A stretch of DNA of 27,191 bases from Lysobacterales bacterium. Its GTDB lineage: Bacteria > Pseudomonadota > Gammaproteobacteria > Xanthomonadales > SZUA-36. This document shows, piece by piece, positions 2,791 through 13,587 of the stretch; the stretch's first letter is position 1; every line of letters begins with the position of its first letter. The position numbers and the translations under genes are program-made. Where the stretch lies: positions 1 through 27,191 of the forward strand of contig JANOGQ010000603.1 of NCBI GenBank assembly GCA_031406105.1, written 5' to 3'. The notes beneath the pieces were generated by a model. The model worked only from the letters and a program-made list of their open reading frames with translations, was not told where the DNA came from and made no database searches.

Positions 2791-2824
2791 TAAGCACGCA
2801 CCTGGAGCAGCAATGAGACCCTTG

Positions 2825-2862
2825 AATATACCCAATATGGGCATTAATATACCCAATATGGG
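2825..2862. promoter_or_regulatory. Tandem 17-bp direct repeat AATATACCCAATATGGG (21-bp period); likely autoregulatory operator
   Basis: Copies at 2825-2841 and 2846-2862, each with a near-palindromic CCCAATATGGG core overlapping the candidate ATGs at 2837 and 2858. Confidence 0.65.
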
Positions 2863-3484
2863 TAGAAAAGCTGTTGGCGATATTCGTAATCAACCGATCA
2901 CTATGGTCGATGCTCTGTTTTCCAGGACACAGCAACGTGTGCTGGCATTGCTATTTGGTCAACCTGAACGAAGTTTCTATGCCACCGAAATCATTATGCT
3001 TTCTGAAGGTGGTTCAGGTGCAATTCAACGCGAGCTATCCAAGCTGTCGAGCAGTGGCTTGATCAACGAAACCCGCATTGGCTCTCAACGGCACTTCCAG
3101 GCGAATGCTGATGCACCGCTTTTTTCCGAGCTGTGTGCGATTGTGCAAAAGACCATTGGATTGGCAGAGCCGCTCAAGACGGCCTTGAAGCCGCTGGTTG
3201 ACCAGATCGAGCTAGCGTTTGTTTTCGGTTCCGTTGCCAAGAAATCGGATTCTGCGACCAGCGATATCGATTTGATGGTGATCAGCGACACATTGGTTTA
3301 TGCGGATGTATTTCTGGCGCTGGAAGAAATGGCTTATAAACTGGGACGGGCCATTCAGCCGACGATCTATTCAAAAGAGGAACTGGCACACCGCCTTGAG
3401 TCCGATAATGCGTTTGTAAGGCGGGTTTTGAAGCAGCCGAAGATCTGGATTATTGGGCAAGAAAGTGACCTCCAAACTGCATAA
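2858..3484 (+). CDS. HTH + minimal nucleotidyltransferase (MNT) antitoxin
   Basis: N-terminal wHTH (SGAIQRELSKLSSSGLI); NTase motif FGSVAKKSDSATSDIDL. Start uncertain (2837 or 2858). Confidence 0.85.
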   Translation: MGRKAVGDIRNQPITMVDALFSRTQQRVLALLFGQPERSFYATEIIMLSEGGSGAIQRELSKLSSSGLINETRIGSQRHFQANADAPLFSELCAIVQKTIGLAEPLKTALKPLVDQIELAFVFGSVAKKSDSATSDIDLMVISDTLVYADVFLALEEMAYKLGRAIQPTIYSKEELAHRLESDNAFVRRVLKQPKIWIIGQESDLQTA

Positions 3485-3884
3485 TCTCACTGGCCCGGGA
3501 AAGTCGCTTGTGGCAGAACCCCCCGATCGGGCTGAATTTGTTGGTTTGGTAAAGTCGGCAACCGCGCGCCTTCGTGACGCCGCCAATACTTCCCTTGCCC
3601 TGGAGAGCCGGTTTGACCTGGCCTACAACTCTGCCCATGCTTTTAGCCTGGCCGCTTTGCGCGCGCAGGGGTTCCGTGCGCATAACCGCTATATCGTCTT
3701 CCAGGTATTACCCGAAACCCTGGGTTTGGGGCCAGAAGTGTGGCGCATATTGGCCAAAGCACATGATCTTAGAAATGTGAGTGAATACGAAGGCGATCTG
3801 AATGTGGATGAACGGTTAGTAACCGATCTGGTAACAGCTACCCAGGCAGTGGCGACAGCCGTTGAGAAATTGACCTTACCCTGA
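3465..3884 (+). CDS. HEPN-like partner (putative toxin) of MNT
   Basis: Overlaps MNT stop by 20 nt with GTG 3465; RFDLAYNSAH...AHDLRNVSEYEG (Rx4Y HEPN-like motif). Confidence 0.75.
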   Translation: MTSKLHNLTGPGKSLVAEPPDRAEFVGLVKSATARLRDAANTSLALESRFDLAYNSAHAFSLAALRAQGFRAHNRYIVFQVLPETLGLGPEVWRILAKAHDLRNVSEYEGDLNVDERLVTDLVTATQAVATAVEKLTLP

Positions 3885-3888
3885 CACA

Positions 3889-3904
3889 CGCTCAGCTGAA
3901 ACGT
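3889..3904. repeat. R2 palindrome copy 1 (degenerate)
   Basis: cgctcagctgaaacgt, starting 5 nt after the HEPN stop. Confidence 0.65.
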
Positions 3905-4040
3905 GAATGCTCTTTTTCTATTCCGCTGCTTTTCTTGATCCAGCGCTCGTTCCAACTGGCAATCCTGCCTTTGCAACGGTCAACAGCCTCTGTGGAAAAC
4001 TGCCCAGGGCACCGTCGCCACCACTGATTGTTCGGCGCGA

Positions 4041-4757
4041 TCAGACAGCTTCGCGGCTCTCAACTGCTCGTCGAACTGTATCCAGATTGATGCTGGAATC
4101 GTAACCGGAACCCAGCTTTGAGAATTCGAAGGTCAAAGACAGTCCTTTGGATTTCCCGAAAGCAGCAATACCGGAATTGAGCGTAGAACTGAAGTCGGTT
4201 AAATCAAACGCTGCGTAGTAGCTTGTCGGCGCAAGCACACAAAGCGTGATATTGGTTGCTTGCAGTACCGGTTGAGTTTCGAGCTTGTATCCAAGTTGCT
4301 CCCGGTGGGTTTTGGACCAGGTAAACAACAAGCCGTACCTCAGAATTTCAATGGCAGCAAAAAGCGGATTGTCGCTGCCGACTTTCAGTTCGATCAATGA
4401 ATAATGAGTTGGGCTTTGTCGATACACCAGGTCAACAGAAGCCCTTTTATCTTTAGCAGCGCTTACCACGCCGGACGCTGTGGGCATCTGATTCGACCAA
4501 CTTTCCCCACAACTGAGCACGATGGCACGTTCAAGCTGAAGCTCGGGGCTTGTGTTGTTTGTTGACAGATCCAGGTGGCGTTTCCATCTCCAGTTTTCCC
4601 TCGAAGGGTTTGAGTAGGCGCTTGCACCTCGGCCCGACCAGTTGTTGGAGATTTGTTGATAGGCCTTGTCGAGAAACTCATGCGTTCCTGTGATGGGGGT
4701 GCTTCTGCGTGTCAGTTCATTCGCGGCCGAGCGATGTTTGGCAATCGCTGGCGGAGC
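4041..4757 (-). pseudogene. 5'-truncated PD-(D/E)xK-like nuclease protein
   Basis: Frame stays open upstream of the listed GTG (4520) to a TAG at 4760-4758 with no ATG/GTG/TTG start: KHRSAANEL...NPSRENWRWK...PELQLERAI...NQMPTASG...VDLVY...LIELK..SDNPLFAAIEILRYG. Confidence 0.6.
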
Positions 4758-4789
4758 CTATCGAACCAGGTCGCAGTCACACATCCGCG

Positions 4790-5045
4790 GTCCGGTTACG
4801 TCGTGGAAAGCCAGGAGGCGGCTTTGTGGGCGTTCACTCGTACGAACAATTTTGCGGATGCGATTCTGCTGGCCGCGAATCTTGGTGAGGACGCCGACAC
4901 GACGGCCGCGGTGTGTGGCCAGGTTGCCGGGGCCTGGTACGGCGAGTCGGGCATCCCGCCCCATTGGCTGGAATGTCTGGCGCTTCGCCCGGACATTGCC
5001 ACCCTGGCCGATCGGCTCGGCATGAGTTCCGAAAAGCGCGCTTGA
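4790..5045 (+). pseudogene. C-terminal fragment of ADP-ribosylglycohydrolase (DraG/ARH family)
   Basis: [15 protein letters not shown]...[28 protein letters not shown]; only ~85 aa of a ~300-aa family. Start coordinate approximate. Confidence 0.85.
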
Positions 5046-5072
5046 TGGATGGCGACAAATGGGCCTGGCAAT

Positions 5073-5212
5073 AAAGGGGCCTAAAAAAGGGGCCTAAAAA
5101 AGGGGCCGGGCACTTTTTCGAATGCGTCAAACTAAATGTATCCGGCCCCTTAAACCAGAAACAGCTCCATTATCCGACAGCAGTCAGCGGTAATTTCCTG
5201 CCCCGGCCCCTT
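5073..5212. repeat. Tandem AAAAAAGGGGCCT (~2.7 copies) plus inverted AAGGGGCCGG/CCGGCCCCTT motifs
   Basis: 13-mer tandem 5073-5107; AAGGGGCCGG 5100-5109 pairs with CCGGCCCCTT 5142-5151; a third CCGGCCCCTT at 5203-5212. Confidence 0.8.
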
Positions 5213-5343
5213 CGGTAATAGGCCAAACTGCTTGTTGTCAGGTTTATCTGGTTCCATCAGGAGTTGAGAAAGCGCTTATCGCCGGCAGCGGGCAACCCGA
5301 ACCGGGTTTGGAACAGCGCATGTTAACCTGACCTTTGAACCAC

Positions 5344-5364
5344 TTGTTCCCATATCGGGAACAA
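5344..5364. promoter_or_regulatory. Palindromic operator upstream of higBA
   Basis: TTGTTCCC-ATATC-GGGAACAA with perfect 8-bp arms, followed by TATCAT (-10-like). Confidence 0.75.
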
Positions 5365-5396
5365 ACTATCATATGAATTATTGCGTGGAGTAAGGG

Positions 5397-5696
5397 GTGA
5401 GAATCATTGCTCTCAAGACCATCCGGGATTTCTGGCAGAAAGCTGCGCATAGAGACAGTGAACAAGCACTTAAATCGTGGTATGCAATTGCACGCAAAGC
5501 CGGCTGGGCAAGTCCGCAAGACGTCAAGGTGCAGTTTGGTCATGCCAGCATCATTGGAGGTGGGCGAGTCGTGTTTAACATAGCAGGCAACAAGTATCGC
5601 CTGGTGGTGAAATTCAACTATGCCTATCGTCTGGGCTACGTCCGGTTTATTGGTACGCACTCCGAATACGATGCAATTGATATGGAGACGATCTAA
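5397..5696 (+). CDS. higB: HigB mRNA interferase toxin (E. coli YgjN type)
   Basis: MRIIALKTIRDFW...WASPQDVK..F..AS...VFNIAGNKYRLVV...FIGTHSEYD. Confidence 0.93.
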   Translation: MRIIALKTIRDFWQKAAHRDSEQALKSWYAIARKAGWASPQDVKVQFGHASIIGGGRVVFNIAGNKYRLVVKFNYAYRLGYVRFIGTHSEYDAIDMETI

Positions 5697-6061
5697 TGAA
5701 AATCAGGCCGATCCGAACCAAAACCGACTATGCTGCCGCCATGAAGCGCATCGATCAGGTTTTCGACGCCAGGCCAGGCACTCCCCAGGGCGATGAACTC
5801 GAGGTGCTAACGCTGTTGGTTGAAAACTATGAACGGCAGCACTATCCGGTCGAGGCGCCTGACCCGGTGGAATTTATAAAGAATGTCATGGAGTTCATGG
5901 GGCTGGGCCAGAACGAACTGGCGGTGGTACTGAATTCACGTTCCCGGGCCTCGGAAATACTCAGCCGCAGGCGCCCGCTGACCTTGTGGCAGATCCGCAA
6001 AATTTCAGCCGCCTGGGGGTTGCCGGCTGATTCTCTTATTTCTGAATATGAAGTTGCCTAA
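5696..6061 (+). CDS. higA: HigA HTH antitoxin
   Basis: IRPIRTKTDYAAAMKRID...DELEVLTLLVENYE...SRSRASEILSRRRPLT; stop/start overlap with higB. Confidence 0.92.
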   Translation: MKIRPIRTKTDYAAAMKRIDQVFDARPGTPQGDELEVLTLLVENYERQHYPVEAPDPVEFIKNVMEFMGLGQNELAVVLNSRSRASEILSRRRPLTLWQIRKISAAWGLPADSLISEYEVA

Positions 6062-6196
6062 AGTATTGGGGTCAGAGTAAAGGGACAAAGTGAAATTGAG
6101 CAGCGGCGCTCAGTTTCGGAGTTGGTTCACCCATTCCCTGAATATTTCAGTCCTTAGTACAAGCCCTCACCTAAATGTCCAGAATCTCGTTGATCA

Positions 6197-6451
6197 GTGG
6201 GTATCGCCATCGAAGCCCATAGCTACCACAAACTACGACAACCCGGTGATGTGGTACCGGATGCGTTCATACCGCTTGCGCGGCCTCTCCAGGCGCCAGA
6301 ACCGGAATTTCAATGCGACGGGCGCAAGTTCTGCGAGCAGATGACCAGCTGTGACGAGGCTTACTACTTTCTTCGCAACTGTCCCGGCAATGACATGGAT
6401 GGTGACGGGGATGGGGTGCCTTGTGAATGGGAAGTGTGTGGCGGGCGATAA
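6197..6451 (+). pseudogene. 3' part of CSD-Excalibur gene (copy 2)
   Basis: GIAIEAHSYHKLRQP (possibly the end of a membrane-proximal segment) then CDGRKFCEQMTSCDEAYYFLRNCPGNDMDGDGDGVPCE; no CSD. Confidence 0.75.
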
Positions 6452-6509
6452 GTTGTCCAGATTGGCCAATGTAGGCAACTTTCAAGTAATTCTTCTGAGG
6501 GGTCTTCCC

Positions 6510-6551
6510 GCTATTCCCGAATCTACTTTAATGTGCGTTCCCGCGGAGCGC
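6510..6551. repeat. R1 repeat copy 2
   Basis: gctattcccgaatctactttaatgtgcgttcccgcggagcgc; right arm degenerate. Confidence 0.9.
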
Positions 6552-6758
6552 GGTTGAGCGCTTGGGTTCCGGGCCCTAAACTGAATACCAAGTTGTCTTT
6601 TCAGTTTCTCCGGCTCGGTGATTTCTTACACGTTTAATAGCAAAGCTGCCAACGACTTCGTATCCAAAAGCTCGCACACTATCGTCAATGCCTTGAATGG
6701 CTTTCAGTGAAGAATCCAGGCCGGGCTGTGTGAAGTTTTCATCAATCGGAAAAACACA

Positions 6759-6779
6759 GTTTAACGCTACGCGTTAAAC
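6759..6779. promoter_or_regulatory. Palindromic operator upstream of second higBA
   Basis: GTTTAACGC-TAC-GCGTTAAAC with perfect 9-bp arms, 24 nt before the GTG start. Confidence 0.75.
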
Positions 6780-6802
6780 GTGATACATTATGGCAGAACG
6801 CG

Positions 6803-7081
6803 GTGATCAAGAGTTTTGCAGATAAAGCAACGGCGCAACTCTTCGGTGGGATTTGCCCGCGCCGGTGGCAATCGGTGCGAAAGTCGGCGGAAAGAAAACT
6901 GGCACTACTGGATGCAGCAACTTCGTTGGAGTTTTTGTACGCACCTCCTGGTAATCGATTGGAACTGTTGCAAGGCGACAGGAAAGGGCAACACAGAACT
7001 CGCATCAATGATCAATGGCGTGTGTGTTTTACGTGGAAGCAGGGCAACGCTTTTGATGTATCCATTGTTGACTACCATTGA
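6803..7081 (+). CDS. higB: HigB plasmid-maintenance-system killer toxin
   Basis: MIKSFADKAT..LF...PPGNRLELLQGDRKGQHRTRINDQWRVCFTW...VSIVDYH. Confidence 0.93.
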   Translation: MIKSFADKATAQLFGGICPRRWQSVRKSAERKLALLDAATSLEFLYAPPGNRLELLQGDRKGQHRTRINDQWRVCFTWKQGNAFDVSIVDYH

Positions 7082-7091
7082 GAACAAACTG

Positions 7092-7391
7092 ATGCCAAAG
7101 AACAAAATGCGTCCCATACACCCCGGTGAAATACTCCGGGAAGAGTATCTGCAACCACTAAACCTGACGCCCAATGCACTGGCCATCGCGCTGCGCGTTC
7201 CGGCGCCCCGGATAAACGATATTGTCCTGGAACGGCGAGCCATTACACCCAATACGGCACTGCGACTGGCGCGTTACTTTGGTGGTGACGCGGGAAGCTG
7301 GATGAATCTGCAGGTAACTTATGATTTGAAGCAGGCCGAGCTTGCGGAAGGTAAAGAGATTCGTACCGAAGTAAATCCCAGAGCGGCGTGA
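7092..7391 (+). CDS. higA: HigA addiction module antidote
   Basis: MRPIHPGEILREEYL...RINDIVLERRAITPNTALRLARYFG...WMNLQ..YDL; start set at ATG 7092. Confidence 0.95.
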   Translation: MPKNKMRPIHPGEILREEYLQPLNLTPNALAIALRVPAPRINDIVLERRAITPNTALRLARYFGGDAGSWMNLQVTYDLKQAELAEGKEIRTEVNPRAA

Positions 7392-7548
7392 TCGTTTGGC
7401 CTTGAATCATGGCCAAACCTCACACCAAAGCGTAAACCATCTCCATCGCCAACCCCTCCTCATTCCTTGTCGGCGATTCTGGCAGAGTTGCGATCCTGGG
7501 AACAAAGCTGGCAGTGACCGCGCCTACCATCGCGTCCAGGGTCTTCAA

Positions 7549-7589
7549 GCTATTCTCGAATCTAATTTAATGTGCGTTCCCACCGGAAC
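7549..7589. repeat. R1 repeat copy 3
   Basis: gctattctcgaatctaatttaatgtgcgttcc-cacc-ggaac. Confidence 0.88.
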
Positions 7590-7615
7590 TCCCATGTCAG
7601 AGCGTTTTTCCTATA

Positions 7616-7671
7616 TCGGATCAAGTGGATTTCGACTGCGGGTTGATAACGGCCTGGCACAAACTGGGAGC
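7616..7671. repeat. Dispersed repeat D, copy 2
   Basis: Colinear with 2627-2682. Confidence 0.85.
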
Positions 7672-7692
7672 GCAATCCAACAAGCCCATTCC

Positions 7693-7720
7693 TTGACAAA
7701 GCACTCCAGTGGAGTATCGT
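7693..7720 (+). promoter_or_regulatory. Sigma70-like promoter with operator palindrome
   Basis: TTGACA (7693-7698)-16 nt-TATCGT; ACTCCA-G-TGGAGT (7703-7715) lies between the boxes. Confidence 0.65.
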
Positions 7721-8058
7721 TGATTTCCGTAGCCGAAACCCAGCCTTTTCAACGGAAAGCTGCACAACTGCTCTCCGAGATCGAAAAATCTGAGCTCATC
7801 ACTCATCTTTCGGCGAACCCCAGTGCTGGAGCCCGCATCAAGGGCACAGGTGGAATCAGGAAGCTGAGGTGGTCATATGGCGGTCGAGGGAAAAGTGGTG
7901 GCGTCAGGGTTGTTTACTATTTCCATGACCTGGATATGCCGCTTTTCTTGCTGACTCTATTTGGTAAAAATGAAAAGTCTAACCTGTCGATGGAGGAGAA
8001 AAACACTCTGTCGAAGCTGGTAAGAGAACTTGTGAAGTGTTGGAGCGGGATGCAATGA
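7720..8058 (+). CDS. RelE/HigB-2-family toxin
   Basis: TTG 7720 after GGAG; NPSAGARIKGTGGIRKLRWS..GRGKSGGVRVVYY...LLTLFGKNEKSNL. Confidence 0.9.
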   Translation: MISVAETQPFQRKAAQLLSEIEKSELITHLSANPSAGARIKGTGGIRKLRWSYGGRGKSGGVRVVYYFHDLDMPLFLLTLFGKNEKSNLSMEEKNTLSKLVRELVKCWSGMQ

Positions 8059-8342
8059 GCAAGGCATTTGAAGAAATCAGCGCCGGTCTGGATGATGCCA
8101 TCGCGCACGCCAAAGGCAGGAAGAGCGCAGTTATTGTCCACGAGCCTGAAACTATTGACGTAAAGGCAATCCGCAAAAAAACCGGCATGAGCCAACAGAA
8201 GTTTTGTACGACGTTTGGAATTTCATTGGGCACTTTGCGTCATTGGGAACAGGGGCTGCGTTCGCCACGGGGCCCGGCGAGAGTGCTGCTGAAGGTAGTG
8301 GATCATATTCCGGGTGCCGTTATCCAGGCGATTGGCAAATAG
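8055..8342 (+). CDS. HigA-2-like XRE HTH antitoxin
   Basis: ATGA overlap with toxin; FEEISAGLDDAI...DVKAIRKKTGMSQQKF...TLRHWEQGLRSPRGPARVLL. Confidence 0.92.
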   Translation: MSKAFEEISAGLDDAIAHAKGRKSAVIVHEPETIDVKAIRKKTGMSQQKFCTTFGISLGTLRHWEQGLRSPRGPARVLLKVVDHIPGAVIQAIGK

Positions 8343-8369
8343 CGGATATCACGACATCTGGCGGTGCAT

Positions 8370-8437
8370 TAGCTGGACCTCTGATCACTTTTCCGGGTTC
8401 CTGCACTGTGGCAAAGCGCGCTTCAGCTGAAACGCGC
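8370..8437. repeat. R2 copy 2 with upstream segment E
   Basis: tagctgg..ctctgatcacttttccgggttcctgcactgtggcaaagcgcgcttcagctgaaacgcgc; aligns to 12593-12658. Confidence 0.88.
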
Positions 8438-8571
8438 ATGGTCAAATCCGAATATATAAAGGCAACGAACAGTTTAATTTCCTACAACAGGCACGGTGAA
8501 TTCCTACATCCCCCCTGCAAAGCGTTGGTTAGGCTTCGTGACACACAAGCCAATCCTTCTATGTATCTATT

Positions 8572-8922
8572 ATGGTACACTCCAGCACACCTCACGACCC
8601 AAAACCGGTCCGTTTCTATCGGCAGGACAATGGTGATGAGCCCGTGCGGGAGTGGCTGAAAAGTTTATCGAAGGAGAACAGGGCAAAGATCGGCAGGGAC
8701 ATCATGACATTGCAAGAAGGTTGGCCTATCGGTATGCCGCTGGCGCGAAAGTTAACCGACCGACTTTGGGAAGTACGCTCAAGGCTGAATCGCGAATCGG
8801 CCAGGACCATTTTCACGGTCAAGGACGAAACCATTATTTTGTTGCACGGATTCATCAAGAAGTCGCGCAAAACACCACGGCAGGATTTAATCATCGCGCG
8901 GGAAAGATTGGCGAAATTGTAA
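8572..8922 (+). CDS. RelE/ParE-superfamily Gp49-like (Tad-like) toxin
   Basis: FY...G.EPVREWLKSL...GWPIGMPL.RKL...LWEVRS...LLHGFIKKSRKTP. Confidence 0.9.
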   Translation: MVHSSTPHDPKPVRFYRQDNGDEPVREWLKSLSKENRAKIGRDIMTLQEGWPIGMPLARKLTDRLWEVRSRLNRESARTIFTVKDETIILLHGFIKKSRKTPRQDLIIARERLAKL

Positions 8923-8947
8923 ATTGGGAGATCAGGAAGAACCGATC

Positions 8948-9232
8948 ATGGGAAAGCAGAATATTGGCAGCCGCTTCGATGAGTTTCTCGACGAGGAAGG
9001 TTTACTACAGGATGCCCAGGCGGTGGCGGCCAAGCGCCTTATCGCCCACCAGCTGGCCAAACTGATGGAAGAGCAGTCCCTGACCAAGATGGAACTGGCA
9101 AGGCGCATGCACACCAGCCGGGCGGCGCTTGACCGTTTGCTTGATCCCGAAAATCCCTCGGTAACCTTACAAACCTTGCAAAGCGCGGCAACGGCTGTTG
9201 GTGGGCGGCTACTCATTACGCTGGAGGTTTGA
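8948..9232 (+). CDS. XRE-family HTH antitoxin (Ata-like)
   Basis: IGSRFDEFLDEEG...KMELARRMHTSRAALDRLLDPENPSVTLQTL. Confidence 0.9.
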   Translation: MGKQNIGSRFDEFLDEEGLLQDAQAVAAKRLIAHQLAKLMEEQSLTKMELARRMHTSRAALDRLLDPENPSVTLQTLQSAATAVGGRLLITLEV

Positions 9233-9280
9233 AAATCCCCGCAGCATGGTCTTCTAATCACGACCAAAAGCGCCAGTGAA

Positions 9281-9306
9281 TGGCAAAAAGCGTTTCAGCT
9301 GTAACG
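9281..9306. repeat. R2 copy 3
   Basis: tggcaaaaagcgtttcagctgtaacg; first 21 nt identical to 13351-13371. Confidence 0.88.
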
Positions 9307-9368
9307 TAATTAGTTGCGCAGTTGGCAAACAAAGCAACATCCGCGAAATTCCTCCGAAGGGTCTTCCC

Positions 9369-9530
9369 GCTATCCTCGAATCTACTTTAATGTGCGTTCC
9401 CGCGGGAACGCGGGTGAGCCGTCACGACACCTGGCGCGCTTGAGCACAAACAACACTCTGGCCTGAGGCGCTGCATTTGCCGGAGATTTCCTACGTAAGA
9501 ACAGCGATTCTCCCATTCAGCCGCGCCTTC
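9369..9530. repeat. R1 copy 4 plus segment C
   Basis: R1 with perfect 18-bp palindrome GCGTTCCCGCGGGAACGC (9394-9411); whole block colinear with 11392-11553. Confidence 0.92.
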
Positions 9531-9592
9531 TGATTCCCCCAGAATTGCCATGTTGACACTTGCTATGTACACAGAACGTGCATACACTCAAA

Positions 9593-9874
9593 ATGAAAAC
9601 CGAATGGGATCCAGCAAAAGCAGCTTCAAATCTGCGAAAGCATGGCATCGACTTTTCTGATGCCGCTGTCGCATTGGAAGACAGAAACGCACTGACGATT
9701 GATGATTCAGGGCATGCAGAGCAGCGGTTCAAGACTCTGGCTCTTGGTCCACAGCTCGCAGTGTTGATGATCGTGCACATCGCGCCGAACGAAGACACCG
9801 TCCGGATTGTTTTAGCGCGACGAGCAGACCGGAAAGAAACCAGCTATTACTTCGATGGAATAAGCCATGAGTGA
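9593..9874 (+). CDS. brnT: BrnT toxin (DUF497)
   Basis: EWDPAKAASNLRKHGIDFSDA...EQRF...VRIVLARRADRKE; start set at ATG 9593; TTGCTA-17-TACACT upstream. Confidence 0.92.
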   Translation: MKTEWDPAKAASNLRKHGIDFSDAAVALEDRNALTIDDSGHAEQRFKTLALGPQLAVLMIVHIAPNEDTVRIVLARRADRKETSYYFDGISHE

Positions 9875-10124
9875 AGACTTCAGTAAAGGAAAACGCGGCA
9901 CCGTTGTTCCCCCCGACCCGAACAAGTTGCGGATCACCATCCGCCTGGATGGCGACATCATCGCGTATTTCAAGCGCAAGGTGCATGAAGCGGGTGGCGG
10001 CAATTACCAGACGCTGATGAATCAGGCCCTGCGCGAATTAATTGATTCGGACTCGAAGCCATTGGAAGAGCGCTTGCGCAAGGTCATCCGCGAAGAGTTG
10101 CGCCAGGTTTCTGAAGCCCGCTAA
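9867..10124 (+). CDS. brnA: BrnA antitoxin (RHH)
   Basis: KLRITIRLDGDIIAYFK...GGNYQTLMNQALRE; overlaps brnT stop. Confidence 0.92.
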   Translation: MSEDFSKGKRGTVVPPDPNKLRITIRLDGDIIAYFKRKVHEAGGGNYQTLMNQALRELIDSDSKPLEERLRKVIREELRQVSEAR

Positions 10125-10126
10125 GA

Positions 10127-10462
10127 TCAGGAAACAGCGCTTCCAAGAAAGTCACCGACGTCGTCAAGTACACTGCCTTGACCGAGCACTTCCACACCGA
10201 CAATCTGCCTGTCAGTAAGGGGTGTTTTCAGAATTACCAGTTAATTCGAAATTTCCTGGCAGCCATTCAACACGGAAAGTCCCATATTCTGTTATGTGAA
10301 GAAAGGCAGGCCGACCTGGTGCGCAGCTACCTGGTAACGGTTTCGTGCATGCGTGATTCTGCACATCGAAAGCGCTGCCGGGTGATTTTTTGGCAGAATA
10401 TCCAGCGAGTATGTGGAGCGGACCTGGTGCTGTTTCTCGAATCCAAGTATGGAATTCGATAG
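10127..10462 (+). pseudogene. C-terminal fragment of a putative restriction-endonuclease-like (PD-(D/E)xK) protein
   Basis: YQLIRNFLAA...HILLCEERQADL...RCRVIFWQ...FLESKYGI resembles C-termini of such proteins as I recall them; no catalytic N-terminal part or RBS seen. Confidence 0.45.
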
Positions 10463-10503
10463 AACCTGGACGGAAAAATAGGGTAACCGGCCAGAAACCA
10501 TCC

Positions 10504-10545
10504 CTATCCTCGAATCTACCTTAATGTGCGTTTCTGCGGAAACGC
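10504..10545. repeat. R1 copy 5
   Basis: ctatcctcgaatctaccttaatgtGCGTTTC-tgcg-GAAACGC; compensatory C-G to T-A change in the stem. Confidence 0.9.
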
Positions 10546-10747
10546 CCAGTTGCGATGGAAATTGCCAAGGTGAATCTCTGATTATTGGAACCCCGCTTTC
10601 CCCGGCGAACTTCTCACCGAATTGAATACCACTGGGGGGCGGTCTCTTTTCCTACGGAACCAGAGGCGTTCTGCCCAGTCAAGCCACGCCCTTTGGCAGG
10701 TAGGCTTGCGAAGGATGATCACCAAAACCTCCAGCATTGAATCCCTA

Positions 10748-10762
10748 TACCCCAATGGGGTA
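10748..10762. promoter_or_regulatory. Palindromic operator
   Basis: TACCCCA-A-TGGGGTA between TTGAAT and TAGTAT, 8 nt before the GTG start. Confidence 0.7.
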
Positions 10763-10770
10763 GTATTGGC

Positions 10771-11094
10771 GTGATATTCATCGAGACGTCTGTTTTTACC
10801 CGCCAGATCAAGAACCTGATTTCTGATGAAACTTACCTGGAGTTACAGGAATGGATCGCGGAGTCTCCAGGCCGGGGGAAGGTAATCCCGGGAAGTGCTG
10901 GTTGTAGGAAACTCCGCTGGAAGATAGCTGGTAAGGGAAAACGGGGTGGCATTCGGGTGATCTACTATTGGCTCAAGGAAAGCAATCAGATTTTTGTGCT
11001 GATCGCTTACGCCAAGGCAGACACGGATGATTTAACCCAGCAGCAGATCAGGCTGTTGCGGGATCTGGTCAAGAACGAGTTCCGGAGTCGGTGA
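10771..11094 (+). CDS. RelE/HigB-2-family toxin
   Basis: MIFIETSVFTRQI...PGRGKVIPGSAGCRKLRW...GKRGGIRVIYYW...YAKADTDDLT. Confidence 0.92.
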   Translation: MIFIETSVFTRQIKNLISDETYLELQEWIAESPGRGKVIPGSAGCRKLRWKIAGKGKRGGIRVIYYWLKESNQIFVLIAYAKADTDDLTQQQIRLLRDLVKNEFRSR

Positions 11095-11095
11095 A

Positions 11096-11389
11096 ATGAA
11101 AGAACAACTCTTTGATGACCTGCTGACTTCAGTCAAGGAGGCAGGTCAGATTCTTCGCGGCAGGTTGCCGCCGACCAGGGTCTTTACGATGAAAGCCCTG
11201 GATGTTCGGCGGCTTCGACACAACCTCAAACTGAGCCAGGGTGAGTTTGCTGCACTGGTGCATGTGAGTGTAAAAACCCTGAGAAACTGGGAGCAAGGTG
11301 CACGCGCGCCAGGTGGCGCTGCTGCTGCACTCCTGACCGCGATCCGGAATGATCCGAAGAATGTAATCTCTGCGCTCAATTCAAGTTAA
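11096..11389 (+). CDS. HigA-2/NadS-like HTH antitoxin
   Basis: LFDDLLTSVKEA...DVRRLRHNLKLSQGEFAAL..VSVKTLRNWEQG.R.P.GAA.ALL.AI.NDP. Confidence 0.92.
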   Translation: MKEQLFDDLLTSVKEAGQILRGRLPPTRVFTMKALDVRRLRHNLKLSQGEFAALVHVSVKTLRNWEQGARAPGGAAAALLTAIRNDPKNVISALNSS

Positions 11390-11391
11390 TC

Positions 11392-11553
11392 GCTATCCTC
11401 GAATCTACTTTAATGTACGTTCCTGCGGGAACTCGGGTTAGCCGACACAACACCGGGCGCGCTTGAGCACAAACAACACTCCAGCCTAAGTCGGGGCATT
11501 TGCCGGAGATTTCCTACGTAAGAACAGCGAATCTCCCATTCCGCGCGCCCTCT
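11392..11553. repeat. R1 copy 6 plus segment C
   Basis: Begins 2 nt after the antitoxin stop; gttcc-tgcg-ggaac at 11419-11432; colinear with 9369-9530. Confidence 0.92.
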
Positions 11554-11563
11554 AATCCTCCGA

Positions 11564-11618
11564 CCATTGGCGGAGAAGATTCGCACGGTAATCCGCGAGG
11601 AATTGCGCCAGGTTTCTG
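11564..11618 (+). pseudogene. Remnant 3' end of a second brnA
   Basis: PLAEKIRTVIREELRQVS vs PLEERLRKVIREELRQVS (10059-10113); 55-nt ungapped alignment. Confidence 0.8.
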
Positions 11619-11677
11619 GACAGCGCACAGGTCAGGCAGCAACTCGGGCTGACCCGAAAAAGCAAGAGAGGGCGCTT

Positions 11678-12190
11678 GTGAAGAATGACGGCCGTTACGA
11701 TATTTCGAAATTGGCGCAAGTCCAATACGAACCAGGTTCAGGCGAGCAGGTGCTCAGGAGTCGGCTTGGTATCAAATCGCCACAGGAAATGGATGACAAC
11801 GAAACCCGCGCCCTGAAAAGGGTGATGGTAGGGCTGGTGAGCAAATAGGATGCGACATATCGCTTCACCTCGGCCGATATCTGCGAGATTCACAGGATTT
11901 GGCTCGGTGAGATTTATGAGTGGGCGGGTGAGTTCCGACAGGTGAATGTGAGTAAGGGTGAGTTTCTTTTTGCAGCCGCTGCTCGTATTCCTGGCCTTGT
12001 GGCGAAATTTGAAAGCGAAGTACTGGCCCGATATACGCCGTGAAATCTGAGAGACCGTGCAGCGGTTGCCCGTGCGCTGGCAGTGGCACATGAGGAGTTG
12101 GTTCTTATCCATCCGTTTCTGGATGGCAACGGTCGGGTAGCTCGTGTAATTTCGATACTTATGGCTTTACAGGCGGGTCTGCCCGCCTTT
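11678..12190 (+). pseudogene. Fic/DOC family protein with two nonsense codons and truncated C-terminus
   Basis: GTG 11678 after GAGAGGG; single frame YEPGSGEQVLRSRLGI...K*(11846)DATYRF...IYEWAGEFRQVNVSK...TP*(12041)...HPFLDGNGRVAR. Confidence 0.9.
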
Positions 12191-12313
12191 CCTAAAAGTA
12201 ATATCGCTATCCCGCAACTTTACCCGCAATTTTGCGGGATTTCGTCTGGTGTGCGATCGCGGTAGATGTATTGTATCGGCCTTCAAAGCATCCGGAACCT
12301 TAAATACCCATGG

Positions 12314-12576
12314 GAAGCCCAACGCAAGCCAGGGAGCGAATCCCGGATCGACGCGGGCATTGACAACCCGCTGATGGGGTAACGGATGCGATCATGCCGC
12401 TTGCGCGGCCTCTCCAGGCGCCAGAACCCGAATTTCAATGCCACGGATGTAAGTTCTGCAAGCAGATGACCAGCTGTGACGAGGCTTGTTACTTTCTTCG
12501 GAACTGCCCCGGCAAAGACATGGATGGTGACCGGGATGGGGTGCCTTGTGAATGGGAAGTGTGTGGCGGGCGCTGA
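12314..12576 (+). pseudogene. Linker + Excalibur remnant of CSD-Excalibur gene (copy 3)
   Basis: Colinear with 1743-2002, with the same GGGCATT|GACAACCC junction; CPGKDMDGDRDGVPCE. Confidence 0.8.
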
Positions 12577-12592
12577 GTTGTGACCATGGGGG

Positions 12593-12658
12593 TAGCTGGG
12601 CTTCTGATCACTTTTCCGGATTCCTGAACTTTGGCAATGGGCGTTACAGCTGAAACGC
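12593..12658. repeat. R2 copy 4 with segment E
   Basis: ...tggcaatgggcgttacagctgaaacgc; aligns to 8370-8437. Confidence 0.88.
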
Positions 12659-12724
12659 TCCAGGTAGCTTTTTACTGACAAAAGTTTGGGCTTTTCCCAT
12701 AGCCGCCTGAACTGACAGATGAGA

Positions 12725-12744
12725 TTGTATCCACATGGGTACAA
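12725..12744. promoter_or_regulatory. Imperfect palindromic operator
   Basis: TTGTATCCA-CA-TGGGTACAA, 7 nt before ATG 12752. Confidence 0.6.
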
Positions 12745-12751
12745 AGTTATC

Positions 12752-13051
12752 ATGATCACAGTTCTTGAGACCGAGGTTTTCGAGACCTGGCTCAGACGGC
12801 TCAAGGATTCGCGCGGTAAGGCCAGGATTATTCATCGCATTCGTGCGCTCGAACGGGGCCATTTTGGTGATTCCCGATCTGTTGGCCCCGGAGTTGTGGA
12901 ATTGAGAATTCACGTTGGGCCTGGTTATCGCGTGTATCTCAAGCGCGAACGGGAGTCGATCTGCACTTTGTTGTGTGGTGGTGGCAAAAGCAGCCAGCAA
13001 AAAGACATCCAGCGTGCAATTGAATTGGCAAAACATCTGGAGCTCTACTGA
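12752..13051 (+). CDS. RelE/ParE-family addiction module killer (TIGR02683-like)
   Basis: FETWLRRLKD...RI..L..GHFGDSRSVG.GV.ELRIHVGPGYRVY...LLCGGGKSSQQKDI. Confidence 0.93.
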   Translation: MITVLETEVFETWLRRLKDSRGKARIIHRIRALERGHFGDSRSVGPGVVELRIHVGPGYRVYLKRERESICTLLCGGGKSSQQKDIQRAIELAKHLELY

Positions 13052-13054
13052 ATC

Positions 13055-13372
13055 ATGTCCAAAACGAAATCGATTTCCGCAAAGCCTTTTGAGGCCAGCG
13101 ATTACCTGGACAACGACGAAGTCATCGCGGAATATCTGGCAGCGGCGCTGGAGGACGATGATCCGGATGCTTTCCTGGTCGCGGTGCGCGATGTGGCGAA
13201 AGCGCGGGGTATGGGCGATGTGGCTGCGAAATCCGGCCTGGGCCGGGAGAGTTTGTACAAGGCGCTGCGGCCCGGCGCACTACCGCGCTTCGTAACGGTT
13301 CGCAGCGTGTTGGCAGCGCTCGGCATTCGGCTCGAGCTGGTTCCGTTTGATGGCAAAAAGCGTTTCAGCTGA
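13055..13372 (+). CDS. Addiction module antidote (TIGR02684/HI1420-like HTH)
   Basis: FEASDYLDNDEVIAEYL...VAKARGM..VA.KSGLGRESLYKAL...PRF.TV..VL.ALG; last codons and stop lie inside R2. Confidence 0.93.
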   Translation: MSKTKSISAKPFEASDYLDNDEVIAEYLAAALEDDDPDAFLVAVRDVAKARGMGDVAAKSGLGRESLYKALRPGALPRFVTVRSVLAALGIRLELVPFDGKKRFS

Positions 13373-13378
13373 AACATT
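13351..13378. repeat. R2 copy 5 (perfect GTTTCAGCTGAAAC at 13362-13375)
   Basis: tggcaaaaagcgtttcagctgaaacatt. Confidence 0.9.
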
Positions 13379-13385
13379 CTTTTAG

Positions 13386-13532
13386 GGAAGCTCTGATTAA
13401 TTCGTCCCTGAAGCATCAGAGCACGCAAAACAAAAAATGTCATTTTTTTTGCTTCATTTTCAATGATTTACAATCATCGAAAATGGCGGCACATCCTTGT
13501 ACCGCGGCAACTCTGAATAAATCAGAGTTGCC
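13386..13532. mobile_element. Putative IS5-family MITE (~147 bp, non-autonomous)
   Basis: Terminal IRs GGAAGCTCTGATTAATTC / (rc) GGCAACTCTGATTTATTC match 15/18; flanks TTAG and CTAA (YTAR); internal hairpins; no ORF. Confidence 0.55.
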
Positions 13533-13569
13533 CTAATTATTTGTAGGAGTTTAGCCCGATATTTGAAGA

Positions 13570-13587
13570 AATGTTTCAGCTGAAACG
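13570..13587. repeat. R2 copy 6 (perfect core at 13573-13586)
   Basis: AATGTTTCAGCTGAAACG is the exact reverse complement of 13361-13378. Confidence 0.88.

Follow-up and report, generated by a model that had tools for sequence, protein, structure and literature searches.

What is the function of a short palindrome that recurs between small gene cassettes in the genome of a Lysobacterales bacterium? The stretch analysed here, hereafter the window, is a contig of 27,191 nucleotides (C243 of its own assembly, which comprises 654 contigs for a 3.6 Mb genome), and the palindrome, R2, has the core CGTTTCAGCTGAAACG within a conserved unit of 16–18 bp, (A)CGTTTCAGCTGAAACG(T). With a modest lean in its favour, we propose that R2 is the cognate site of multi-copy DUF222-HNH ('13E12'-type) nucleases, that cassettes are gained and lost there, and that a sister palindrome, R1, serves a second nuclease subfamily in the same way. 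The observations behind this proposal are the identity of the site, its co-occurrence with the nuclease, its compensatory conservation, the breakpoints at R2, a similarity of fold and a predicted dimer.

Two other contigs of the same genome (C617 and C229) carry paralogous open reading frames (ORFs), each with three R2 copies at a fixed spacing of 385 and 234 bp and in two reading frames. Pfam assigns both ORFs a DUF222 and an HNH domain (PF02720 and PF01844). Homologues of this nuclease across the order contain about three internal copies each of CGTTTC-NGCN-GAAACG, two of which encode the peptide VSAET and one RF(R/S)GNV. R2 is the genus-specific version of the wider palindrome family CGTTYC-NGCN-GRAACG, the centre being CAGCTG in its own genus, CCGCGG in most lineages and CTGCAG in one. 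The palindrome inside the genes is conserved beyond the needs of the peptide, in its fixed synonymous sites, in a compensatory change that alters two residues and in the avoidance of a stop codon. First, GTT, GAA and ACG keep their synonymous third positions unchanged. Second, another subfamily in the same genome (C425 and C645) has GTTCCCGCGGGAAC, where two complementary base changes turn VSAET into VPAGT, and this sequence is exactly the R1 hairpin of the window; the two nuclease subfamilies match the two palindromes, R2 and the R1 hairpin. Third, at the internal site that is read in the other frame, CAGCGG is kept where CAGCTG would make a TGA stop. Copies of the GTTCCCGCGGGAAC-type subfamily are also present in a genus-mate (G003), and in a different genus of the same family (G009) there are HNH copies whose core is the related TTCCCGCGGGAA, together with R1 arrays.

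The palindrome family also follows the nuclease from genome to genome. Among 121 genomes of the order, it is found in 18 of the 18 that bear the nuclease and in six of the 103 that lack it, with one copy in each of the six. R2 proper is largely confined to its genus (five of six genus-mates, compared with one of 54 other genomes). Stem positions of the palindrome co-vary and the NGCN loop is free. In several genomes copies also lie outside nuclease genes, for example seven of ten in G080, where seven in-gene copies read VSAET. One such copy in the genome of the window is instructive: in a multicopper-oxidase-like gene (L083, C242:6435), five substitutions within 16 nt have made a look-alike into a perfect R2, and two of the five alter amino acids relative to the genus-mates. 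The orthologues, which read NNVSADTL, carry the look-alike at the same place, and insertion of an R2 copy was rejected on that ground. The pattern is suggestive of short-patch conversion or of selection for a new site.

In the window, a search with GTTTCAGCTGAAAC at no more than one mismatch returns 8420, 9292 and 12643, with one mismatch each, and the perfect copies at 13362 and 13573. A second allowed mismatch adds a match at 10530 (two mismatches), whose sequence, GTTTCTGCGGAAAC, is the hairpin of the other repeat, R1, and not R2. Shuffled windows give an expectation of 0.09 matches, and six matches were reached in none of 100 shuffles. The copy at 3889, CGCTCAGCTGAAAC, has three mismatches and a whole right half; we regard it as a true R2 despite its decay because a genus-mate has a perfect R2 at the end of the same MNT/HEPN cassette. 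R2 is thus represented by five good copies, two of them perfect, and one degenerate copy, all within 3.9–13.6 kb, and the search at up to two mismatches found none between 13.6 and 27.2 kb. A prior reading of the window from its letters and ORF translations (the sequence-only reading) had described this cluster and its absence from the remaining 13.6 kb; both descriptions hold, as do the sites themselves, with exact positions that were off by 1–4 bases. The whole 3.6 Mb genome has 13 perfect copies and 21 at no more than one mismatch, compared with one for the reversed control; R2 is therefore rare overall and concentrated in the array of the window.

These counts also bear on the repeat classes that the sequence-only reading had named as alternatives, a generic and abundant repetitive extragenic palindrome (REP) and the terminus of an insertion sequence or of a miniature inverted-repeat transposable element (MITE). 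R2 was rejected as a REP: its perfect copies number 13 and several lie inside genes, and the single Y1 transposase of the genome (C507) is flanked by GGGGTCAGAGTAAAGGGACAG-type repeats and not by R2. It was likewise rejected as a MITE terminus, since the MITE-like repeat that separates the last two R2 copies has its boundaries at 13382 and 13536, with R2 outside them, and its more than 100 other copies are without R2. That repeat, which occurs in more than 100 copies in the genome and in dozens in each genus-mate, reaches a read depth of 250–750x, compared with about 7x nearby. As a separate observation, a GGGGTCAGAGTAAAGGGACA repeat flanks the sole Y1 (RAYT-like) transposase in inverted orientation (C507:2316-2345 and 3128-3155) and recurs in the window at about 6068–6090; it forms a separate REP-like family.

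Where does R2 lie relative to the genes? It is always downstream of the final gene of a cassette, at a distance of 5–78 nt from the last stop codon, and in one instance the stop codon is provided by R2 (KRFS-TGA). TGGCAA lies exactly 7 nt ahead of a TTCAGCTGAAAC-like sequence at 8409, 9281, 12632 and 13351 (0–1 mismatch; 0.03 expected), so that the spacing reported earlier for four copies is correct. The suggestion that this box is an independent element of fixed spacing did not survive alignment with the R2 copies of genus-mates, where TGGCAA turns out to fall on the closing codons (..GKKRFS stop) of genes for HI1420-type antitoxins or of their decayed remnants; R2 copies that follow other genes, such as HEPN genes, are without it. 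To judge from these alignments, the box reflects common descent of the left flank and is no separate signal.

The constant position past the last gene would also suit an RNA or single-stranded DNA hairpin, for example a 3' stabiliser or processing site, with the breakpoints arising by recombination at a short repeat. The co-variation of the stem around a free NGCN loop fits such a hairpin, as do some sites that are G-T-type hybrids. However, no T-tract follows any R2, and R2 was rejected as an intrinsic terminator, with none of 15 terminator-like calls falling on it; Rfam gives no match for the window at gathering thresholds. Furthermore, a role at mRNA ends is ill-suited to the VSAET copies in nuclease and housekeeping genes and to the conversion in C242, and central bases that are particular to the genus point towards sequence-specific recognition or copying. 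We consider the hairpin explanation quite unlikely.

Comparison with related genomes shows how R2 behaves at cassette boundaries. In an all-against-all comparison of flanks, left and right R2 flanks reassort. Between the same two flanks lie 2.4 kb in one genome (G006) and 1.1 kb in another (G002), which differ in content and are bounded by R2 in each. The MNT/HEPN cassettes of the window and of G006, where the cassette has a perfect R2 end, cease to be homologous 3 nt past R2. A Gp49/HTH (helix-turn-helix) cassette related to that at 8420–9292 is bounded by two R2 copies in G002, where its neighbours, its spacing and its right end are different. Similarly, on another contig of the same genome (C232), the restriction endonuclease (REase) fragment of the window is joined across an R1 hairpin to a different neighbour. 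The cassette content of related genomes changes exactly at R2, and R2 is therefore a cassette junction; this lends support, in altered form, to the earlier suggestion of a recombination or insertion site marking module boundaries. The synteny of the right flank of the array adds nothing, as the relatives' contigs end at the array or are rearranged there. Among public contigs from four freshwater-sediment runs of one study, whose coverage is incomplete, there was no clean joint at R2, the joints being short-sided or repeat-derived. Searches of the R2 flanks of the window with blastn and tblastn for remnants of nuclease genes show no similarity past the palindrome.

Co-oriented cassettes with breakpoints at R2 are also what one would expect if R2 were the core site of a dedicated recombinase, Xer-like or unknown, in the manner of pdif sites, its presence in nuclease genes being a separate matter. 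In support of this explanation, the XerD arm of dif, ATTATGTT(A/C)AAT, comes 3 nt after 11 of the palindromes, spread over five genera. The dif site of the genome under study (C13:7363) reads AATTCGTATAA-TGTATA-TTATGTTAAAA, and the motifs beside the palindrome (at L019, L024, L025, L058 and L069, and at C523:499 of the same genome, where the palindrome is followed by TTATGTTAAAA) are identical or nearly identical to its XerD arm. The R2 copies of the window, however, have no XerD arm or only traces of one, and at the position of the XerC arm just 4–5 of 11 bases match the genome's own dif; on these two grounds R2 was rejected as a dif/Xer site with 11-6-11 arms. We saw no recombinase gene, either in the window or on those other R2 contigs that were examined, and a recombinase leaves unexplained both the three conserved copies per nuclease gene and the match between palindrome variant and nuclease subfamily. 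We judge it unlikely.

Still less probable, in our view, is that R2 and R1 are decayed or derived attC sites and the array an old integron array, similar to a cluster of attC sites lacking integron-integrases (CALIN), that IntI handles now or handled formerly. The array has the layout of a chromosomal integron, toxin-antitoxin cassettes with a repeat after each, and on another contig of the genome (C174) an integron integrase, scoring 472.6 bits where the cut-off is 265, is encoded next to a canonical attC. In a related genus, a classic integron with intI and about 25 attC matches (L057; G017:C1:445000-462000) includes three near-identical attCs that bear the palindrome, as CGTTTC(C/G)GCGGAAACG, at their apex, and one class of R2 left flank in genus-mates resembles, by eye, the left half of a G017 attC. 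Against this stands a covariance model built from 13 canonical attCs of relatives, which recovers 14 attCs on which it was not trained, including the three with the apex palindrome. Neither the window nor any of eleven further R1/R2 loci yields a match to this model at E≤10, and when the filters are switched off every R1/R2 site still goes unmatched. A pattern-plus-fold scan for paired RYYYAAC...GTTRRRY cores (50–140 nt) likewise finds them in the G017, G005 and C174 integrons and at none of the R1 and R2 sites of the window. (Two crude genome-wide attC scans were too noisy or too strict and are superseded by this locus-restricted scan and the covariance model.) R2 has neither R''/R' cores nor extrahelical bases, only 16–18 bp being conserved, and a genus-mate (G005) has an integron whose attCs are canonical and free of R2. 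The model and the core-pairing scan led us to reject R2 as an attC. The XerD-arm motifs, the apex attCs of G017 and the hybrid sites keep the Xer-type, attC-derived and hairpin explanations alive, each at low probability.

What does the nuclease look like? The full-length model is confident only at residues 25–165 and in the HNH core, and a model of the N-terminal domain alone reaches a predicted local distance difference test score (pLDDT) of 89.5. The top 25 Foldseek matches of the domain model are all ParB, Spo0J or Noc proteins, with probabilities of 0.77–1.0 and E-values of only 0.24–2. VIA-align places it closest to Spo0J (Z 9.2; 109 residues aligned, root-mean-square deviation 3.3) and to the DNA-binding domain of a ParB-parS complex (Z 9.1; 125 residues, 4.6), followed by KorB (Z 7.3 and 7.1), the best unrelated match scoring 6.7. 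A sequence search of the DUF222 domain against the PDB yielded nothing meaningful. These comparisons lend moderate support to a predicted ParB/Spo0J/Noc/KorB-type DNA-binding fold in the N-terminal domain. Prediction of two copies of the nuclease scored 0.56 (best control 0.00), with at least 73% of contacts agreeing between runs and a partner pLDDT of at least 62; among proteins of solved structure, 20 of 30 that are pairs of one chain attain that mark, as does one of 23 that are single chains. The predicted interface is formed by the middle domain, residues 152–303. The prediction supports a homodimer. The sequence-only reading had offered, as one option, a ParB-like or other dimeric protein with altered specificity, and the likely reader of R2 has a modelled ParB-type domain and a predicted homodimer; however, it is not a ParB of the partition kind, and the island does not encode it.

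That reading had also remarked on the resemblance of R2 to parS. Could R2 be a centromere-like parS, bound by the chromosomal partition ParB with altered specificity or by a second ParB_N protein? The half-site GTTTCA is common to R2 and parS (TGTTTCAC|GTGAAACA), about ten R2 copies per genome is a parS-like number, and a second ParB_N protein exists (C511; over 504 residues long, with ParB_N as its only domain, and cut off by the contig end). Against this, C518 has two canonical parS-type sites, GTTTCACGTGGAAC, separated by 600 bp (1041 and 1644), and a canonical ParB is encoded on C322. No R2 copy fits the parS consensus TGTTNCACGTGNAACA at up to two mismatches, the centre of R2 being GC, not CG, and its outer positions C/G. 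In G080 and G007, relatives with near-complete genomes, sites of the R2 family lie scattered, and R2 sits at cassette joints and in nuclease genes, tracking the nuclease gene and not ParB. The candidate reader has, by Pfam, no ParB_N (CTPase) domain, and this, with the canonical parS and ParB on other contigs, led us to reject R2 as chromosomal parS. The partition explanation is highly improbable.

We return to the proposal that R2 is a nuclease site. Binding, cleavage and the route of repair at R2 are the parts that we infer. The protein combines a modelled ParB/KorB-like helix-turn-helix with a predicted dimerisation domain and with the HNH nuclease, and its homodimer would read both half-sites of the palindrome. 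After binding, the enzyme would nick or cut at the palindrome. Repair between palindrome-bearing segments would then insert or delete the DNA that lies between two sites, and would occasionally turn look-alike sequences into new sites. R1, with the palindrome of the second subfamily, would do the job of R2.

DUF222-HNH ('13E12') genes are widespread, multi-copy and SOS-regulated, and we know of no function for them. LexA-box-like sequences, TACTGTACGTTTGAACAGCT and TACTGTACATTAAAACAGTA, lie upstream of DUF222-HNH genes on C617 (37 nt before the HNH start) and at L015 (G003:C53); CTGT-N8-ACAG is absent from the window itself. In Mycobacterium tuberculosis the 13E12 family is LexA-regulated, and the mycobacterial family has been described as insertion elements that house attachment sites for phages (PMC3381160). 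We tentatively raise a wider possibility, which we hold to be doubtful, that the DUF222-HNH genes and their palindromes make up an integron-independent cassette-collecting system, in which a damage-inducible ParB-like nuclease opens sites and repair builds toxin-antitoxin and defence arrays and seeds sites in ordinary genes; the long-unexplained 13E12 repeat family would thereby gain a function.

Several points weigh against the nuclease proposal. The co-occurrence counts overstate the support for it because related genomes do not count as independent. The fold matches are moderate, with E-values of 0.24–2 and Z scores of about 9 that are slightly above the chance reach of helical domains. Residues of the recognition helix show no clear co-variation with the central bases of the palindrome. 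There is no nuclease gene in the window, nor beside the array as far as the fragmented assembly shows. Unlike in classic homing, the cassettes are flanked by whole palindromes and not by half-sites, and a 16–18 bp repeat could be a passive hotspot of illegitimate recombination. Hybrid sites with G-T-type asymmetry (e.g., GTTTCCGCGGGAAC) suit a single-strand hairpin equally with a duplex site. Finally, the nuclease model does not account for the XerD-arm-like motif after 11 palindromes in five genera.

The features of the window are collected in Table 1. By Pfam, the array contains MNT/HEPN, HigB/HigA (two), RelE/HTH (two), Gp49/HTH, BrnT/BrnA, Gp49-like/HI1420 and Excalibur genes, as well as Fic and REase fragments. 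On C232 (L075, 3327–9519), a reverse transcriptase gene and genes for a DUF499 and a DUF488 protein adjoin another R1/R2 cassette stretch. These neighbours suggest that R1/R2 arrays are located in defence islands.

Table 1. Cassette array, palindromes and associated repeats in the window.
Feature	Position	Strand	Remarks
Array of co-oriented small cassettes, R1 or R2 after each	2813..13372	+	Pfam scans and repeat positions
Degenerate R2, CGCTCAGCTGAAACGT	3889..3904	.	Left half decayed, right half whole; 5 nt past HEPN gene stop
R2 copy, CGCTTCAGCTGAAACG	8419..8434	.	1 mismatch; 78 nt past HTH antitoxin stop; junction of RelE/HTH and Gp49/HTH cassettes
R2 copy, CGTTTCAGCTGTAACG	9291..9306	.	1 mismatch; 60 nt past antitoxin stop; right end of Gp49/HTH cassette
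R2 copy, CGTTACAGCTGAAACG	12642..12657	.	1 mismatch; downstream of Excalibur gene remnant
Perfect R2	13361..13376	.	Provides final codons and TGA stop (..KRFS stop) of HI1420-type antitoxin gene 13055-13372
Perfect R2, final site of array	13572..13587	.	84 nt from stop of convergent AI-2E transporter gene
R1 hairpin, GTTCCCGCGGGAAC, sister palindrome	9396..9409	.	Identical to palindrome inside second HNH subfamily (contigs C425, C645)
Further R1 hairpins	7576-7589, 10530-10543, 11419-11432		Repeat positions
TGGCAA boxes	8409..8414; also 9281-9286, 12632-12637, 13351-13356	+ (8409..8414)	Remnant or real 3' end of HI1420-type antitoxin genes
MITE-like AT-rich repeat of ~155 bp with terminal stem-loop	13382..13536	.	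Inserted between last two R2 copies; blastn, read depth

If the nuclease proposal is correct, the DNA-binding fold of ParB would have been co-opted to target a nuclease, and bacteria would possess a second route, independent of integron integrases, by which small cassettes for defence and addiction are built and reshuffled when DNA is damaged. Two nuclease subfamilies and two repeat families within one genome offer a directly testable pairing of protein and site. For annotation, the lesson is that parS-like palindromes in islands need not be centromeres. In the literature on DUF222, 13E12, palindromes and non-attC cassette arrays we found no description of a link between palindrome, nuclease and cassettes, and among papers on 13E12 none with a cognate palindrome, a ParB-like DNA-binding domain or a connection to cassette junctions.

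How does R2 compare with known systems? Like integron attC arrays and CALINs, the window holds small, co-oriented, mostly toxin-antitoxin cassettes with a structured repeat where content changes, in a genome with an integron integrase; its repeats, however, are perfect palindromes of 16–18 bp that fail the attC model and lack R''/R' cores, whereas integrons of the same genus use canonical attCs. The pdif (Xer) modules of Acinetobacter plasmids similarly consist of toxin-antitoxin modules bounded by short sites, and a subset of R2-family sites has an XerD-arm-like motif; in contrast to pdif, R2 has no 11-6-11 site and no XerC arm, its orientation does not alternate, and the copies in the window are mostly without the arm. 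With parS/ParB, NBS/Noc and OB/KorB, R2 shares a palindrome of similar length (16 bp, compared with 13–16 bp), the GTTTCA half-site of parS, a predicted reader of ParB/KorB type and a predicted dimer; it differs in a reader with HNH and without ParB_N, in its GC centre, and in a proposed role in DNA rearrangement and not in segregation. REP/REPIN sequences and their RAYT enzymes also pair one family of enzyme genes with cognate short palindromes scattered in the genome, but R2 has about 10–20 copies and not hundreds, many of them within genes and in frame, and the enzyme is an HNH nuclease and not a Y1 transposase. Finally, REP13E12 of M. tuberculosis shares with the nuclease described here the PF02720 and PF01844 domains, the multiple copies and the SOS-box-like upstream sequences; what sets our system apart is its gammaproteobacterial host and the presence of its sites both inside the ORF and at the joints of toxin-antitoxin cassettes.

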